This document shows, piece after piece, positions 4,228 to 36,848 of a stretch of 36,848 nucleotides of DNA. Both the position numbers and the translations under genes were made by a program. The DNA comes from a virus: IMG/VR virus record IMGVR_UViG_3300028568_000020; one strand, written 5' to 3'. The first letter of the stretch is position 1; each line of letters opens with the position of its first letter. The notes under the pieces were generated by a model. That model made no database searches. It was given only the letters and a program-made list of their open reading frames with translations, and was not told the origin of the DNA.

Positions 4228-4248
4228 ATATATATAAAGGTTACGGTT
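4228..4248 (-). promoter_or_regulatory. Archaeal BRE-TATA promoter of the replication operon
   Basis: Minus strand AACCGTAACCTTTATATATA, matching the motif seen at seven other gene starts. Confidence 0.75.
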
Positions 4249-4687
4249 TAAATAAAATTTCATTTTCAAAATCAGCAATTCTTGAAAAAACCTTATCAGA
4301 AAAATACTTTACCCAAATATGAGTTCTAACAAATTCTGATGGGCTTACAACATACACCTTTATATCTGGGTTTTGAATTTTAGCCAAAGCTACTTCCATA
4401 AATGTTCCAATGGTTCTTTGATAAGATAATAATATGGCAACTAAAACATCACTTGTTTTAATATTGTTTAAATCATTAGGCACAATAATCTCTGCTGGAA
4501 ATTCGTTTGCCCCAATTAATTTATCTTTGAACATCTGGTTATAGCACATACCACTATCATAAAATGGGTTGTATAAAAACACATTTATGTTTTGGGTATC
4601 AATCTTTTCTTGTGTTTTAAGTTGCCATAACCTAACAAGACTTTCATCGGCATAAGGATGTGCCAAGTAAAACTTTCTTATTTCCAA
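4241..4687 (-). CDS. Nucleoside 2'-deoxyribosyltransferase / Rcl(DNPH1)-like N-glycosidase
   Basis: FYLAHPY, YNPF, NDLNNIKTSDVLVA and GTFMEVALA carrying the family nucleophile Glu. TTG start after a GGTG SD. Confidence 0.72.
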   Translation of the reverse strand: MEIRKFYLAHPYADESLVRLWQLKTQEKIDTQNINVFLYNPFYDSGMCYNQMFKDKLIGANEFPAEIIVPNDLNNIKTSDVLVAILLSYQRTIGTFMEVALAKIQNPDIKVYVVSPSEFVRTHIWVKYFSDKVFSRIADFENEILFKP

Positions 4688-30613: not shown

Positions 30614-32413
30614 TTAACCACCCCAACTTTTTCCTATTGTTATGTCTACATCAATCTTAACATCTGCTATAAATTGATACCACGCTTCCATCATACAATT
30701 TTTTAGTTCCCTGCTTATCCTTTCACTATCTGTTTCCTTACATTCTAAAACTATTTCATCGTGAACAATAGCCACAATTTTAACTGATCTTAATTCACTA
30801 CATAATAATGTTTTAAATATGTTAAATAGTGCTACTTTTAATATATCAGCACCAGTTCCTTGAACTGGCGTATTATATAGTTCTCCTGTAATATAATCCT
30901 TGTCATACCTTCTTATCCTGCCACCTAATGTAACACTATAATCTTTTCTACTTAATTTACTATGCCAGTCTTTTAAACCCCTATAAGTTTCAAAAAATCT
31001 TTTTTTAAATATTTCTGCTTTACCCAATGTTATCTCTAAACCAAAATTGGTCTTGGCATAATCCTTAAAACTTTCTGCCCCCATACTGTATAAAAACCCA
31101 AAATTAAATGACTTGGCTTGGTATCTTTGTTCCTTTGTTACCTGTTCTTTTGGGACACCCAGAAGTTTGCTGGCACTTAAAGTGTGTAAATCTTCACCCA
31201 ACTCATAAGCCTTTAACATGACTGGGTCTTGTGATAAATGGGTAGCTATACGCAGTTCTATCTGTGAATAGTCCGCTTTTATCAATACACCCCCATCTTC
31301 TTGTGCCTTAAAACACTTTCTATAATTCTTTTCCCTCGGCACTTGCTGTATATTGGGGTTGTTGCAACTAAACCTTCCAGTTGCTGTTCCTATCAGATTA
31401 TATTTTGGGTGTAATCTGTTATCTTTCGAACTTTTATATTTCTGATATTCCTTTCCAAAACTTGTTAATTTTTTTGATATTGTTTTATACTCAATCAATA
31501 GTGGCAGAACTGGGTGTCTGTCTTTTATGGTGTCTAAAAAGTCTTTCCCAGTTGTTTCCACTTTAATACCCAAGTTTAAATCTTGTAATACTTCTTTAAG
31601 CTGTATTGGTGAATTTAAGTTAATATGCCTATCCAACATAATTAAAATTTGGTCTTCCAGTTTATCATATTCAAACTGTAATTGTTGGGCAATAAGTTCC
31701 CAATCATTAAAATCCAGATAAATGCCATCTTTAATGCACCTTACTATTGTTGGAATACAGTTAATGTCAATGTTAAATGCCTTTGTTAATCCCATTTGTT
31801 CCAACTTATTTTTTAATATCCCATACAGTTCATAAGTTACTTCTACATCTTTTTTGGCATATCTTACTTGGTCAATACTTAATTTTTTAATCAACCAATT
31901 TCCAGTTTGTTCTGATTTATCTAACTTTATGTTAAGGTATTTGTTGCATAAATCTTCCAAACTAAATCCTTTTCTGTTTAATCCACAATCAATTATTTTT
32001 TCTGCCACTTGTGTATCAAATAACTTAAAATCTGTTCTTTTGATGTGGGCATAAGGGTAAAGCATACTTAAATCAAATATGGCATTATGGAAAACTAATA
32101 TGCCATTGGTGTAATTTAATAAGATGTTAACAATATATCTTTTTTGTTCATCATCATAATCAAAAAAATCAAATATAAAAACTTCATCATTATCAATTTT
32201 AACTTGTAGTAATCTTACATAATCTTCACTAAAATCCAACCCTGTTGTTTCTGTGTCAATGGCAATAATATTAGAACCCATTATTTTTAACATTGTATCT
32301 TTTAGGTTATCCCATTGTGCTGTTACCATCACATTGTTAAATTCTTTTTGAATATCTGCCTTTTGTTTTAAGGTATCTTCAAAACTAAATAATGTTTCTT
32401 GAACCCCTACCAT
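30614..32413 (-). CDS. polA: Family A DNA polymerase with 3'-5' exonuclease, no 5'-3' exonuclease
   Basis: ExoI IAIDTETTG, ExoII HNAIFDL, ExoIII YAKKD; motif A KADYSQIELR, motif B RYQAKSFNFGFLY, motif C VHDEI; TGRFSCNNPNIQQVPR. Confidence 0.95.
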   Translation of the reverse strand: MVGVQETLFSFEDTLKQKADIQKEFNNVMVTAQWDNLKDTMLKIMGSNIIAIDTETTGLDFSEDYVRLLQVKIDNDEVFIFDFFDYDDEQKRYIVNILLNYTNGILVFHNAIFDLSMLYPYAHIKRTDFKLFDTQVAEKIIDCGLNRKGFSLEDLCNKYLNIKLDKSEQTGNWLIKKLSIDQVRYAKKDVEVTYELYGILKNKLEQMGLTKAFNIDINCIPTIVRCIKDGIYLDFNDWELIAQQLQFEYDKLEDQILIMLDRHINLNSPIQLKEVLQDLNLGIKVETTGKDFLDTIKDRHPVLPLLIEYKTISKKLTSFGKEYQKYKSSKDNRLHPKYNLIGTATGRFSCNNPNIQQVPREKNYRKCFKAQEDGGVLIKADYSQIELRIATHLSQDPVMLKAYELGEDLHTLSASKLLGVPKEQVTKEQRYQAKSFNFGFLYSMGAESFKDYAKTNFGLEITLGKAEIFKKRFFETYRGLKDWHSKLSRKDYSVTLGGRIRRYDKDYITGELYNTPVQGTGADILKVALFNIFKTLLCSELRSVKIVAIVHDEIVLECKETDSERISRELKNCMMEAWYQFIADVKIDVDITIGKSWGG

Positions 32414-32423
32414 TTAATTTCCC

Positions 32424-34124
32424 CTAAAAGTAATTTTGCAATGTAGATTGTTCCCCATCATCTAAATCTAATTTACCAAAAATTTCATTTATTTTTTTAG
32501 CATCCCCTTTAAAAAATACTAAAACATTTTGGTGCATTTTACCAATTTTTCTTGAATTATTAAAAATTTTACCTGCCCTAATAGGTAAAGTCCCAATAGA
32601 ATTAACTAAAATAATTTCATTATATTTTAAAGCACCCCATTTCGTAAAAATATTAACCGTTTCTTCTGGTAAATTTCTATAAAAACCCTTTTCATCCCTT
32701 ACATCACCTACAACAAATACAGCAAATCTGTTATTTTTTAATTTATCTAATGACTTTTTGATAATTGAACTATACACTTCTAAAAATTGATTATAAGTCA
32801 TGTTGCTTAAATCCTGTTTGTTATCAGAATAAACCTCTAAATCAAAATATGGGGGGCAACTAAAAATTAAATCTACACTTTCATTTTCAATTAAATCTAA
32901 AACTTGATTACTATCCCCAGTTAACCAAACTGGATTAATATAATCATCTTGTTGTTTTTTTGCTGTTTCCCTGATACCAATTATCCAAAATAAATCACCA
33001 CTTTCTAAAAATGGGATGCATTTTGCTTCATAAATTGGGTCTAATTCTATTCCTTTAAAATTAGTTGTTGGTGCAAATTTATGGTAATCTAAACCACTAT
33101 CAATTAAAGTTACCTTTTCTTTCCAATCACTTGGTGCATATTTATTTAATCTTTCCTCTGGATTAGCACCAACACAAACACCCAAAACTTTAATATTTAA
33201 ATTTTGTTCTTTTAATCCCCATAATAATCCACTTAAAGACATTCCACTCCCAACAGTTATAACAATTCTTTTTACATCAGTTGGTATATCCACAACTTGT
33301 TGTTTTGTTTGATTAATAACTTCATCACATTCCATTCCAAAAGGTATTTCTGCCCATCCCAAATTTTTAGCATCTTCTCTTGCTCTTGCAACAATAACAC
33401 TATTATACCCTGCTTTATGTTGAATAATCTCTGCACCCTTTTCTTGTGCCCTAATTAATTCTGGTGAAAGTTCACCTTGTGGGGTGTGTGCCCTGCATTT
33501 TAAATTTAATCTTTTGGCTAATGTTGCAACAATATTAACTTGTGGTGATGAACGACTCCCTGCTGTAACAACACCTGTTGTTTTTAAGTTTTTCATTAAA
33601 CCCCAAGCTGTTCTAACTTTTCCACCACAAACACCATCAATAGTAAATAAATCTTCCCTTTTAAACCACATATCATCTATTTTTTGGATAGGTGTAACAA
33701 AATTAAATATAGAATTATTTGTTTTATTTTTAGGTTTTATATCTATCCATTGTTGTTCATTTGCTTCAATTTGTCTTTGACTTAAATCAATGCCTATATA
33801 GGGGTAACCTGATAAGGAAGCTACAATGCCCCTCACACTCCCACCAGCAAAACAATCTAATATTTTTCCATTTTCAACATTAAACCACTCGTAACAAATT
33901 TCACATAAAGCTGGGTCAAAAATACTTGTTTCTTGTGATTGTTTTATGCCATACTTTTTTTCATCAAATCCTTTTGGCAAACACCCAGCATCTCTCCCCA
34001 GTTCCCCTTTTATACCAAGTTTTAACCATTTTTTTCTTCTGTCTATCCAATATTGTTGTTTTGTGTCAAAAACACTAAATGGGGGTATTAAAAATTTGTC
34101 TTCTAATTTATTGAATTTTTTCAT
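32424..34124 (-). CDS. SAM-dependent amino-methyltransferase-like protein split by an in-frame fold-type II PLP enzyme domain
   Basis: MTase motifs ILDCFAGGS, GIDL, GDS, DLIFSCPPY; insert (aa ~143-386, nt ~32967-33698) with KREDL..GGKVR, TAGSRSSPQ, VGSGMS, LDPIYEAK. Confidence 0.85.
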   Translation of the reverse strand: MKKFNKLEDKFLIPPFSVFDTKQQYWIDRRKKWLKLGIKGELGRDAGCLPKGFDEKKYGIKQSQETSIFDPALCEICYEWFNVENGKILDCFAGGSVRGIVASLSGYPYIGIDLSQRQIEANEQQWIDIKPKNKTNNSIFNFVTPIQKIDDMWFKREDLFTIDGVCGGKVRTAWGLMKNLKTTGVVTAGSRSSPQVNIVATLAKRLNLKCRAHTPQGELSPELIRAQEKGAEIIQHKAGYNSVIVARAREDAKNLGWAEIPFGMECDEVINQTKQQVVDIPTDVKRIVITVGSGMSLSGLLWGLKEQNLNIKVLGVCVGANPEERLNKYAPSDWKEKVTLIDSGLDYHKFAPTTNFKGIELDPIYEAKCIPFLESGDLFWIIGIRETAKKQQDDYINPVWLTGDSNQVLDLIENESVDLIFSCPPYFDLEVYSDNKQDLSNMTYNQFLEVYSSIIKKSLDKLKNNRFAVFVVGDVRDEKGFYRNLPEETVNIFTKWGALKYNEIILVNSIGTLPIRAGKIFNNSRKIGKMHQNVLVFFKGDAKKINEIFGKLDLDDGEQSTLQNYF

Positions 34125-34174
34125 TTTTTTATCTCCTGTAATTTTTTTATTATTGTGAAAAAATTTAATTTATT

Positions 34175-34861
34175 TTATTCATTCATTGGTTTTATCTTGT
34201 TGAAATAATACATAAATGGGGTGTCAATTAAAGCATTTAATACTTTAAATAAATATCCTAATATCCCCATATTCAATAAAACATAATTTGGAAAAACTCC
34301 ATAAAATGCTATTGTTAAAAATATTAGGGTATCAAATATGCTTGCTACCATTGTTGATGCATTATTTCTTAACCATAATTTCTTTTCACCAGTTTGGTCT
34401 TTTATTTTATGAAATATTGTAACATCTATAATACTTGAAAAAGTATAAGCTATTATTGATGCTAAAGCTATTCTGGGCATTAAGGCAAATATGGCTTGTA
34501 AAGATGGTCTTGCCCAATCTTCAAAAGATGGCACATAAAGTAGCATTATCTGGGTGTAAAAAGTAAAAATTACCATTCCTGCTATCCCCAGATAACAAGC
34601 CTGTTTTGCTAATTTTTTTCCATACTTTTCACTTATAAAATCTGTTGCCAGATAACTTAAACTGTAAGTGTTCCCAATACCTGCAATTAAACCAAATATT
34701 GATGCTAATTGTAAAACTGCTATATTGGCATATATTATATATATGGGTATTAAAATAAAAAGCCCGATTTTCCCAAATATTTTATATAGCACAAGCAGTA
34801 ATCCTGCCCCTATTAAAAATTCTACAATCCACAAAATTGAGTTAAACAAAATTTCATTCAT
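34175..34861 (-). CDS. yhhQ: YhhQ/VUT-family (DUF165) 7-deazaguanine (queuosine precursor) transporter
   Basis: About six TM helices; IYANIAV, IGNTY, LATDFISEKYGKK.A, PRIALASIIAYTFS, LWLRNNASTMVASIFDT. Confidence 0.88.
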   Translation of the reverse strand: MNEILFNSILWIVEFLIGAGLLLVLYKIFGKIGLFILIPIYIIYANIAVLQLASIFGLIAGIGNTYSLSYLATDFISEKYGKKLAKQACYLGIAGMVIFTFYTQIMLLYVPSFEDWARPSLQAIFALMPRIALASIIAYTFSSIIDVTIFHKIKDQTGEKKLWLRNNASTMVASIFDTLIFLTIAFYGVFPNYVLLNMGILGYLFKVLNALIDTPFMYYFNKIKPMNE

Positions 34862-34869
34862 TTTTTCAT

Positions 34870-34930
34870 TGTCTCCTTTTATTTTTTTATCCCATTAAAC
34901 TGGGGTTGAGTAACCGTTTTAATGAGTAGT
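34870..34930 (-). promoter_or_regulatory. Structured 5' leader of yhhQ (riboswitch candidate)
   Basis: Stem CUCAUUAAA/UUUAAUGGG, inner GGUU-ACUC-AACC hairpin, then AUAAAAAAAUAAAA and AGGAG SD. Confidence 0.35.
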
Positions 34931-34941
34931 TTAAATTAATA

Positions 34942-34966
34942 GGTTATATATATAAAGGTTTTGATT
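34942..34966 (-). promoter_or_regulatory. Internal archaeal promoter for yhhQ
   Basis: Minus strand AATCAAAACCTTTATATATATAACC overlapping the end of the dpdA-like gene. Confidence 0.7.
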
Positions 34967-35732
34967 TTAACTTCCAATAAACTTCCAATCTGTTCTGTAA
35001 TTTACTCCATTCAACAAAAGACCAATTTCTAAAATAGTTTGTCTTTTGTGGTTGCGCCCTGTATTTATTTAAAGTAACTAATTTATCTTTATTATAAACA
35101 ATCAAGTCCCCAAATCTACAACTATTAACCCAAGAACTGCTATCAACACTATCAAAATTAAATCTAAAAATATCATTCATTGCTGTTAAAGCAAAACCGT
35201 GCACTAATGTCTTATTTTTATGGGCGTAATCTAACATTGGCTGGATATACCTGTAATCAATTTCCCTTCCAAAACCCACATATTTAAATTCCTTACAATA
35301 ATTTTTCCAATCATTTAAAGTTCTATTAAAACCTAATTTGCTATCCAGACCATGCCAAACTGCTATTGGGGGTTCACCAATACAATCCCATAAATAATGT
35401 CTTATTTCTTTTACTTTTTTATACGGTATAATATTATCAATATCCATTTCTACATAATTATCCCAGTAATCATAATTTTTTTTTAACCATCTAATGTAAT
35501 TTTCTACATATTTATCAACTGTTTGTTCATCTATATGTTCTAATTTTTGCAAGGTGAAAGCCCCACTATCTATCATAAGATAATGATTTTTTAGTATATT
35601 GGCTTTATGTATTCTATTTAAATCTTGGTCTTTAAAATAAGTAAAAGATATAAGATTACTTGAACTTAAATTTAAATTTTTTGAATTAATAACATTAAAA
35701 TCTGCCCAACCAAAAGATAAAAGTAATTTCAA
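34944..35732 (-). CDS. dpdA: DpdA-like tRNA/DNA-guanine transglycosylase (TGT fold)
   Basis: MIDSGAF, VEMDID, AVWH, VGFG, VHGFALT, FDSVDSSSW; adjacent to yhhQ. Start re-called at TTG 35732 after GGTGA. Confidence 0.78.
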   Translation of the reverse strand: MKLLLSFGWADFNVINSKNLNLSSSNLISFTYFKDQDLNRIHKANILKNHYLMIDSGAFTLQKLEHIDEQTVDKYVENYIRWLKKNYDYWDNYVEMDIDNIIPYKKVKEIRHYLWDCIGEPPIAVWHGLDSKLGFNRTLNDWKNYCKEFKYVGFGREIDYRYIQPMLDYAHKNKTLVHGFALTAMNDIFRFNFDSVDSSSWVNSCRFGDLIVYNKDKLVTLNKYRAQPQKTNYFRNWSFVEWSKLQNRLEVYWKLKSKPLYI

Positions 35733-35733
35733 T

Positions 35734-36204
35734 TCATTCACCAAAAAAATCTGTTAATTTATTCTGGTTTCTTTTCCCCTGTTCAATCTTTTCAATTTGT
35801 TCCAATGTTAAATTACTTGTGGGTAAAAACAAATCAGAAACAATATATCCAGTAATCACTTCTTGAAATTCTTTTGTTGTTCTCATAAGGTATTCATATA
35901 ATAAGTCGGCATTGAAAGAACTGTATTGGTCAGAAAGATTACAAGATAACATAAACTCAATTTCTTCTTGGGTATCTTTAAATTCTTTAACAATAACTGG
36001 TATTTCTTTTTTACCCAGTAATTTACAAGCATTAAATCTGGCATTACCATCTATTATTTCATTTTGGGTATTGATTACAATAGGTTGAACAATACCAAAT
36101 TTTTCAATCAATGTTACCATTAATACAGTTGTTTTGTCAATATTCTTTAAAGTTGTATATTTTTCTTTTAATTCATCAATATTTTTTTCTATTATTTGTC
36201 TTAT
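35734..36204 (-). CDS. ParB/Sulfiredoxin-like N-terminal domain protein; start ATA 36204 or GTG 36213
   Basis: FGIVQPIVIN...IIDGNARFNACKLLG...IPVIV...LSCN; C-terminal QNKLTDFF. Confidence 0.82.
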   Translation of the reverse strand: MRQIIEKNIDELKEKYTTLKNIDKTTVLMVTLIEKFGIVQPIVINTQNEIIDGNARFNACKLLGKKEIPVIVKEFKDTQEEIEFMLSCNLSDQYSSFNADLLYEYLMRTTKEFQEVITGYIVSDLFLPTSNLTLEQIEKIEQGKRNQNKLTDFFGE

Positions 36205-36209
36205 GTAAA

Positions 36210-36289
36210 TCACCCCTTATTATTGTGATAAACCAAGTGGGTTTTTGGTGATGTAAAAAGTTACCCACTTGGAAACGGTTTCACCGTTT
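36210..36289 (-). promoter_or_regulatory. Two-hairpin intercistronic leader with anti-SD loop
   Basis: AAACGG/CCGTTT hairpin, then a 10-bp stem CCAAGTGGGT/ACCCACTTGG whose loop holds ATCACC, complementary to the downstream GGTGAT SD. Confidence 0.5.
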
Positions 36290-36320
36290 TTTAAATGAAG
36301 GCTTCTTGGACGGTATAAGT

Positions 36321-36488
36321 TTAATCACCCATTAATTCATCAATATTATTTAACACCCAATCTAAACATTCCATTATGCCCTCTATTCTGGCTACTGTGG
36401 TTGGGTATATTATATCCCTTGCGTGTTTGTTATACTGGGCATCAAAAAATTCTTTTGCATCTCTTATTTCCTGTTCTGTTCTAATCAT
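36321..36488 (-). CDS. Hypothetical 55-aa protein (not in ORF track)
   Basis: MIRTEQEIRDAKEFF...ARIEGIMECLDWVL; AGTGA SD. Confidence 0.6.
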   Translation of the reverse strand: MIRTEQEIRDAKEFFDAQYNKHARDIIYPTTVARIEGIMECLDWVLNNIDELMGD

Positions 36489-36493
36489 TTAAA

Positions 36494-36604
36494 TCACTTT
36501 CCTTCATCTTTAAACCCAAACCAATAGATTTGAGTTACTGTTTTTTCCAACACTTCTAAACTAACACTCTTTTTTTCAGATTTTTTTAGTTGTATTGTAT
36601 TCAC
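36494..36604 (-). CDS. Hypothetical 36-aa protein (not in ORF track)
   Basis: GGTGA SD, GTG start, first ORF after the promoter. Confidence 0.45.
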   Translation of the reverse strand: MNTIQLKKSEKKSVSLEVLEKTVTQIYWFGFKDEGK

Positions 36605-36630
36605 ATACATCACCATATTATCAAATACAA

Positions 36631-36654
36631 GTTATATATATAAACCTTTTGGTT
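36631..36654 (-). promoter_or_regulatory. Archaeal BRE-TATA promoter of the modification operon
   Basis: Minus strand AACCAAAAGGTTTATATATATAAC. Confidence 0.78.
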
Positions 36655-36655
36655 T

Positions 36656-36711
36656 GTTACTAATTGGCAATTAGTAGTTCCCCCATAAGTTACTAATTGG
36701 TAATTAGTAGT
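36656..36711. repeat. Pair of palindromic operator-like boxes
   Basis: GTTACTAATTGG(C/T)AATTAGTAGT at 36656 and 36689, 33-bp period; each contains TACTAATT-N3-AATTAGTA. Confidence 0.75.
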
Positions 36712-36848
36712 ATTAACACCCCTATATTAAACACATCAAATATATATGTTTTTAATAACTGGTTGTTTAAAACACTTAAACAGTTGTTTAAAATAAAAGA
36801 AAATAAAATGGGTGTGTTTTAATACACCCTATCTTTTAAATAACGGCT

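Follow-up and report, generated by a model that had tools for sequence, protein, structure and literature searches.

A ParB-DpdA-YhhQ cassette for predicted salvage-fed 7-deazaguanine DNA modification in a phage-like contig, and its probable independence from a neighbouring PLP-methyltransferase

Gene content of the locus

The virus record IMGVR_UViG_3300028568_000020 of IMG/VR is a stretch of DNA of 36,848 nucleotides (hereafter, the window), a phage-like contig with a G+C content of 30% and with all its genes on the minus strand. One end of the window carries a ParB-like gene, a gene for a protein that resembles DpdA and the tRNA-guanine transglycosylases (TGT), a gene for the transporter YhhQ, a gene combining DNA-methyltransferase and pyridoxal 5'-phosphate (PLP) domains, whose product is referred to here as the PLP-methyltransferase, and the gene of a family A DNA polymerase (PolA). 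A reading made from the sequence alone (the sequence-only reading) had proposed that these five genes form one new system, in which an imported precursor is installed in DNA by DpdA and tailored by the PLP-methyltransferase, in an operon coupled to replication. The five contiguous and co-oriented open reading frames (ORFs) that it had described are indeed present on the minus strand, and they are listed below together with a 12-bp direct repeat, TCACAATAATAA, copies of which lie close to the ribosome-binding sites (RBS) of two of the genes. As argued in the following sections, the first three genes most likely represent a salvage-fed system of 7-deazaguanine DNA modification, which is probably independent from both the PLP-methyltransferase and PolA.

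36217..36228, minus strand: 12-bp direct repeat TCACAATAATAA, upstream copy, situated a few bases ahead of the RBS of the ParB-like gene; delimits the cassette on the left
35734..36213, minus strand: ParB-like protein, 159 residues (PF02195, 5e-10; phrog_620, 2e-16)
34944..35744, minus strand: predicted DpdA-type DNA-guanine transglycosylase, 266 residues (phrog_887, 2e-30; profile and fold)
34175..34861, minus strand: predicted YhhQ/COG1738 queuosine-precursor transporter, 228 residues (PF02592, 7e-45; TIGR00697, 4.5e-49)
34147..34158, minus strand: 12-bp repeat, downstream copy, shortly upstream of the RBS of the PLP-methyltransferase gene; delimits the cassette on the right and the following module on the left
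32424..34124, minus strand: DNA-methyltransferase-like protein with an inserted PLP domain, 566 residues (PF00291, PALP, and PF01555, N6_N4_Mtase)
30614..32413, minus strand: family A DNA polymerase PolA with 3'-5' exonuclease, 599 residues (PF00476, 3e-85; PF01612, 8e-31)

This gene arrangement is no assembly artefact: a single contig of run X3 covers positions 32376-36185 with 1 mismatch, and run X5, which belongs to a different study, tiles the same stretch.

A short DpdA of the phage kind

The 266-residue protein has no match in Pfam or NCBIfam, which is likewise the case for the validated DpdA of phage 9g. Upon exhaustive HMMER search, it retrieves 1309 representative clusters, mostly of around 250 residues. 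Long forms occur as well; the members P0151, P0160, P0180, P0225, P0248, P0282 and P0244 measure 495-624 residues, of which 250-370 form a C-terminal extension without a match in Pfam. In the family profile, obtained from an alignment of 62 sequences, D59-S60-G61 (in the motif DSGAF), D101, H131, H182 and D201 (in the motif VDSSSW) are invariant. When compared by hhalign, the profile of the window DpdA matches 9g DpdA with a probability of 99.5% (E 1e-22) and Rosebush gp2 with one of 98.4% (E 6e-15). Its best solved relative is the DpdA of Salmonella (PDB 7ui4), a marginal match (E 0.07) in which Asp95 and Asp256 align with D59 and D201, respectively. In the Salmonella enzyme, Asp95 works as the general acid/base and Asp256 as the nucleophile (PMC10164549).

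An AlphaFold2 model of the protein (pLDDT 90.8) aligns with bacterial and human TGT over 254 residues (VIA-align, Z 16.7, root-mean-square deviation 3.7-3.8), and its top Foldseek matches are Cap10, TGT and ArcTGT. The model corresponds to a bare barrel of 266 residues, which has neither the zinc subdomain nor the C-terminal tRNA-binding domains. Because its profile matches the 9g and Rosebush proteins, the fold is that of a TGT and the zinc site is absent, the protein is classified as a short form of the 9g/Rosebush kind of phage DpdA, with the exchange of guanine in DNA as its predicted activity. None of the Dpd models in PADLOC is matched by the ParB-like or the DpdA protein of the window.

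The ParB-like partner

The genomic neighbourhood of DpdA was evaluated in 80 viral loci that encode the window DpdA subfamily and that are related to one another. In 73 of them, an iterative search identifies a full-length ParB-like homologue directly upstream of DpdA, on the same strand and abutting or overlapping it; among the remaining seven, at least three (L011, L041 and L080) have DpdA at the end of the contig. The two ORFs of the window overlap by 11 nt as called. The partners found in other loci are 160-215 residues long, and G56 and R59 of the DGNAR motif, i.e. the conserved G..R nucleotide-binding motif, are invariant across 27 partners. A profile of the family matches Rosebush gp1 with a probability of 94.9%, and the window protein matches by BLASTP the ParB of the Fusobacterium phage phiFN37 (2e-8). 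These observations support the view that the ParB-like gene belongs with DpdA.

Precedents for such a pairing are available. Bacterial DpdA requires the ParB-fold ATPase DpdB (PMC10164549), a thymine dioxygenase is switched on by the ParB homologue of a phage, specifically when the DNA is double-stranded (PMC13229309), and the gene that precedes a mycobacteriophage DpdA has already been suggested to be a dpdB homologue in the paper on CRB2 (PMC6392294). On account of the conserved pairing with DpdA and of the DpdB and phage-ParB precedents, the ParB-like protein is proposed to assist or activate DpdA when the substrate is double-stranded DNA. It is not a DpdB orthologue, as it is too small with its 159 residues. 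The near-obligate presence of the partner (73/80 loci) also implies that reconstitution with DpdA alone may fail.

Supply of the precursor

The third gene of the cassette scores 167 bits against TIGR00697, whose equivalog cut-off is 50.95, and 153.6 bits against PF02592, whose cut-off is 27.2. A YhhQ homologue follows DpdA in 20 of the 80 loci, and genes of the preQ0 pathway lie within 6 kb of DpdA in 48 (FolE in 39, QueD in 40, QueE in 37 and QueC in 44). FolE, QueD and QueE are found in none of the 20 YhhQ loci versus 40 of the 60 other loci (Fisher p = 8e-8, a value that overstates independence, because the loci share kinship, and that is not a true probability), and this mutual exclusion is the pattern that alternative routes of supply would give. 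In 17 loci, neither YhhQ nor precursor genes are present within 6 kb. Five YhhQ loci (L003, L007, L016, L033 and L069) have QueC between DpdA and YhhQ and are devoid of FolE, QueD and QueE, which would fit the import of 7-carboxy-7-deazaguanine (CDG) instead of preQ0, or another role of QueC.

The sequence-only reading had recognised no folE, queD, queE, queC, queF or arcS in the window, and this holds over the contig, which is incomplete at its 36848 end: the other 37 ORFs have no family match to FolE, QueD, QueE, QueC, QueF or ArcS, and an iterative search with the precursor enzymes of phages 9g and BCD7 found no homologue in the window, QueC and Gat-QueC included. Likewise, the Pfam matches of all the window ORFs contain no homologue of DpdC, DpdL, DpdM/DUF3109, DpdN, Gat-QueC, ArcS or QueF. 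The incompleteness is deduced from the closest relative of the window, the Logan contig L001 from another sample, which has a primase-polymerase/D5-type helicase gene (L001 1-2034) where the window ends (36848). At gathering scores, no Rfam family is found anywhere in the window; no preQ1 riboswitch appears at E up to 1 within 34100-36848 and thus none upstream of YhhQ, and the window contains no tRNA genes.

A DpdA accompanied by YhhQ and devoid of precursor-synthesis genes most likely represents a salvage-fed 7-deazaguanine DNA modification, so that this part of the sequence-only reading holds as a prediction; its claim that the virus imports the precursor is supported by the distribution of YhhQ versus the synthesis genes but not shown, the transport of the substrate being predicted. 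DpdA-only phages and phages encoding YhhQ had been described by Hutinet et al. in 2019, who proposed supply by the host or uptake and raised the scavenging of the base without finding a pattern (PMC6884629). The exclusion between YhhQ and FolE/QueD/QueE provides distributional support for scavenging as a real alternative to synthesis.

Cassette boundaries and natural alleles

The ParB-like, DpdA and YhhQ genes form a cassette of 2.07 kb (34147-36228) that is flanked by the direct repeat. The 12-mer occurs without mismatch at just two sites of the window, the two edges of the cassette, and both copies lie a few bases upstream of an RBS, that of the ParB-like gene and that of the PLP-methyltransferase. 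The repeat may be promoter-like and at the same time serve as a site of recombination.

Relatives of the window provide natural alleles. Over the 15.7 kb covered by the comparison, L001 is 91% identical to the window in a 55-residue ORF, 86% in the PLP-methyltransferase, 91% in PolA, 80% in a 136-residue ORF, 81% in the small terminase subunit (TerS) and 95% in the large one (TerL). Within these 15.7 kb, L001 has none of the ParB-like, DpdA and YhhQ genes; by synteny, the rest of this contig corresponds to the structural genes, and a DpdA might still lie there. Window positions 34127-36319 (2193 bases) are replaced in L001 by 288 unrelated bases, a difference that alignment places precisely in the interval from the stop of the 55-residue ORF to the region where the PLP-methyltransferase starts. 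The opposite configuration is also found, since contigs of runs X3 and X5 join position 32405, at the start of PolA, to position 34158 via 30 other letters; this junction at the repeat boundary means that the PLP-methyltransferase gene is skipped in those alleles. In addition, the match of one contig of run X2 breaks off at 34162, whereupon 14 further letters agree with 36233-36246, i.e. with a junction at the repeat, which suggests an allele that lacks the cassette precisely at the repeat; the same run has no cover over 34351-36182, by itself no evidence of absence.

From L001 and the alleles of runs X2, X3 and X5, it follows that the PLP-methyltransferase and the DpdA cassette each occur without the other in close kin. 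The best explanation is that ParB-DpdA-YhhQ is a recurrent, mobile three-gene phage cassette. Restriction sensitivity could moreover be compared between the natural alleles of this wastewater phage that have or lack each module.

The PLP-methyltransferase

In the PLP-methyltransferase, the PLP domain (around residues 140-395) is inserted between the part that contains motif I (residues 69-114) and the part that contains motif IV (residues 396-546). The fusion of methyltransferase and PLP domains described in the sequence-only reading is therefore real as to its two components, which are not, however, arranged end to end. The binding motif for S-adenosylmethionine (SAM), motif I DPFAGGSVRG (residues 90-99), is invariant in 43 sequences, and so is the PLP-binding lysine K169 (GGKVR) in the alignment of the family. 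Since both are kept, the protein is probably active. In its fold, the PLP domain resembles D-cysteine desulfhydrase (4d9f and 1j0a, Foldseek E 1e-11) and belongs to the fold-type II enzymes that resemble 1-aminocyclopropane-1-carboxylate (ACC) deaminase and D-cysteine desulfhydrase, its activity being predicted.

Motif IV of N6/N4 DNA methyltransferases is expected to read (D/N/S)PP(Y/F/W). In the family of the PLP-methyltransferase, nearly all of the 82 loci examined, whether or not they have the PLP domain, show CPPY at this site with an S or a T in front. These loci include 24 in which the PLP domain is inserted, 13 in which a separate PLP gene is present and 45 without a PLP domain. In Mycobacterium phage Vincenzo, gp1 and gp2 (L164 1-2275) represent a split pair encoded by adjacent and overlapping genes, gp2 being ACC-deaminase-like; in Croceibacter phage P2559S (L165 2515-4156), the partner is a small SAM decarboxylase, gp67, in place of the PLP protein. 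The CPPY motif together with these varying PLP or SAM-decarboxylase partners hints that the chemistry takes place at the amino-acid end of SAM and is not plain methylation. Overall, the family counts more than 5000 relatives, mostly of around 750 residues with a ParB domain fused at the N-terminus; no such fusion is present in the phage lineage of the window. No specific description of a ParB/methyltransferase/PLP enzyme was found in the literature.

A relationship with DpdA is not apparent from the neighbourhoods. The PLP-methyltransferase occurs in none of the 80 DpdA loci, and among 80 loci of the methyltransferase family, a match to the DpdA profile and a YhhQ are found in one each. Moreover, the validated methyltransferase of dPreQ1, DpdM, is a DUF3109 protein unrelated to the PLP-methyltransferase. 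Thus, the best explanation is that the latter is a separate and widespread phage DNA-modifying enzyme, independent of DpdA.

PolA, the remaining genes and the host

PolA is likewise found in 0/80 DpdA loci, so that its adjacency is not conserved, and DpdA modification is held to be post-replicative (PMC10516641); the coupling of one operon to replication is thus not borne out. Its position beside the cassette is best explained by the ordinary clustering of early genes around a core phage gene, the replicase. A survey of neighbourhoods for the five-gene set, as suggested by the sequence-only reading, returns the ParB-like gene and YhhQ with DpdA (73/80 and 20/80 loci) and neither the PLP-methyltransferase nor PolA. 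Nor is the claim of a new system supported, given that the literature includes DpdA-only phages, phage YhhQ and a ParB/DpdB-like gene next to the DpdA of a phage (PMC6884629, PMC6392294). What had been proposed as a new system would rather be a chance juxtaposition of two phage modules for DNA modification, both of known kinds.

Downstream of PolA lie TerS and TerL, and the rest of the window encodes a helicase, an exonuclease and structural genes. At 4241-4687 on the minus strand, distant from the cassette, a 148-residue protein shows weak similarity to nucleoside 2-deoxyribosyltransferases (phrog_1817, 1.6e-5; PF05014, 0.009, below the cut-off). The nearest TerL proteins are those of phages of Thermoanaerobacterium, Helicobacter pullorum, Bacillus and Clostridium (35-44% identity), and the nearest PolA proteins those of Clostridium phages (30% identity). 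All of these are bacterial phages, which gives no support to the premise of an archaeal host. The stretch itself is found in metagenomes of wastewater, sludge, digesters and soil from 16 studies.

Proposed function and alternative explanations

Collectively, these data make it probable that the locus comprises three independent modules, namely a salvage deazaguanine cassette, the PLP-methyltransferase and PolA. In the cassette, YhhQ would bring in a base of the queuosine-precursor kind, preQ0 or preQ1, which the phage would not synthesise itself. As homology suggests, DpdA would then swap guanine in the double-stranded phage DNA for the imported base after replication, by the double displacement typical of TGT, with D201 as the putative nucleophile and D59 as the putative general acid/base. 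The small ParB-like protein would help DpdA on duplex DNA, in the way that DpdB does for bacterial DpdA and the phage ParB for thymine dioxygenase, as the conserved pairing and these precedents suggest. Escape from host restriction is the likely benefit of the cassette.

Some points weigh against this interpretation. The structural zinc site of bacterial DpdA and TGT, CxCxxCx22H (PMC10164549), is missing from the window DpdA, which has no cysteine cluster after D201 and none among its conserved columns. The ParB-like protein lacks the NPR motif that most DpdA partners keep and, at 159 residues, cannot hold the C-terminal domain of DpdB. The inserted base may vary, as DpdA enzymes can insert preQ0, preQ1 or CDG depending on supply (PMC10516641), and, the contig being incomplete at its 36848 end, genes for the precursor might still lie in another part of the genome. 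To these should be added the kinship of the 80 loci mentioned above. Finally, the DNA of the DpdA-only Mycobacterium phage Orion contains no deazaguanine (PMC6884629), and the presence of DpdA therefore does not guarantee modification.

A single pathway, in which DpdA installs the imported precursor and the SAM- and PLP-dependent enzyme tailors the deazaguanine to an undescribed base in connection with PolA, could account for five contiguous and co-oriented genes; tailoring of deazaguanines in DNA does exist (PMC10516641), and the SAM motif and PLP lysine of the PLP-methyltransferase are retained in a probably active enzyme. It is nevertheless hardly credible, as L001 has the PLP-methyltransferase and PolA without the cassette, the contigs in two runs skip the PLP-methyltransferase, and co-occurrence is restricted to 0/80 and 1/80 loci in the two directions, with PolA in 0/80 DpdA loci. 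Moreover, the family has more than 5000 members, which typically carry their own fused ParB and have no DpdA nearby, and the known dPreQ1 methyltransferase DpdM is an unrelated DUF3109 protein. The claim that the SAM+PLP enzyme tailors the deazaguanine is thus supported neither by the distribution of the genes nor by the behaviour of the modules, which are separable.

Within the preferred reading of three modules, the origin of the base and the fate of the DNA could also be seen differently. The cassette might be fed mainly by preQ0 or preQ1 made by the host, in which case YhhQ would top up the supply or import another compound and 'salvage-fed' would be a misnomer. Many phages of this type must indeed rely on the host, since both YhhQ and precursor genes are missing within 6 kb in 17/80 loci, host supply has been proposed for DpdA-only phages by Hutinet et al. 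(PMC6884629), and the QueC found in 5/20 YhhQ loci hints that the imported compound is not always preQ0. This appears unlikely, however, in view of the mutual exclusion of YhhQ and FolE/QueD/QueE (0/20 vs 40/60) and of the equivalog-level match of YhhQ to queuosine-precursor transporters, which points to salvage. That the TGT-like protein leaves phage DNA unmodified in practice, either acting on tRNA or staying idle without substrate, is suggested by Orion, which has DpdA but unmodified DNA (PMC6884629), and by a fold that is common to tRNA enzymes. We regard this as very unlikely, because the closest validated relatives are DNA enzymes, the bare 266-residue barrel has neither the zinc subdomain nor tRNA-binding domains, DpdA is strictly paired with a ParB fold of the DNA-binding type, and the importer in the cassette argues that the supply of substrate is provided for.

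Two broader views, both tentative and on balance doubtful, may also be considered: that ParB-like proteins are obligatory activators defining a distinct and very large 'ParB-dependent' class of phage DpdA, and that two independent modification systems act on the same phage DNA. Under the former, YhhQ import and de novo synthesis may be interchangeable supply modules within the class; under the latter, the PLP-methyltransferase may install an undescribed SAM-derived group of the aminoalkyl type on another base. If true, a ParB-dependent class would account for the failure of some DpdA enzymes when tested heterologously.

Comparison with known systems

The bacterial Dpd system of Salmonella Montevideo (PMC10164549), which is part of a restriction-modification island, shares with the window the catalytic aspartates, and it also needs a ParB-fold partner for preQ0 to be inserted into DNA. 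The proteins differ in size and architecture: DpdB is a much larger ATPase with a subunit of around 40 kDa and an SspE-like alpha-helical C-terminal domain, which is absent from the 159-residue partner of the window, and bacterial DpdA has over 400 residues with a zinc site and insertions, whereas the window DpdA has 266. The PLP-methyltransferase, for its part, belongs to the family of the phage ParB-N6_N4 methyltransferase fusions (PMC12704722), from which it differs in the inserted PLP domain, the CPPY motif IV and the lack of a fused ParB.

Among phages, the DpdA of Escherichia phages 9g and CAjan (DpdA1, Queuovirinae) is homologous to that of the window (99.5% for 9g), and in 9g it adjoins polymerase genes, as it does here. 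Unlike the window, 9g has no ParB-like gene beside DpdA and possesses the full set of FolE, QueD, QueE and (Gat-)QueC. In Bacillus phage BCD7, FolE, QueC, QueE and QueD lie beside the DpdA homologue.

A closer parallel is offered by Mycobacterium phage Rosebush, whose gp1-gp6 encode a ParB-like protein, DpdA, QueC, QueD, QueE and FolE, and whose DNA contains dPreQ0 at around 28% of G (Hutinet et al. 2019; PMC6884629). The ParB-like and DpdA genes form a homologous pair in the same order and overlap in both cases, with 263 and 385 residues in Rosebush vs 159 and 266 in the window. Rosebush makes its own preQ0, whereas in the window YhhQ is present and genes for synthesis are absent; in Rosebush the modification is a post-replicative exchange of guanine, to which the one predicted for the window is likened by homology of its genes.

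The order of the cassette itself recurs in the cultured Fusobacterium phage phiFN37 (OR492271), which is annotated with a ParB-like partition protein, a queuine tRNA-ribosyltransferase, a hypothetical protein and a queuosine precursor transporter and which, like the window, has no adjacent synthesis genes. Its DpdA is 30% identical to that of the window (tblastn) and overlaps the ParB gene by 4 nt; the differences reside in an extra gene of 144 residues between DpdA and YhhQ and in a genome of 85 kb. No published data on DNA modification were found in the literature for phiFN37. As this cultured phage carries the same cassette, the idea that the precursor is obtained by salvage is directly testable.

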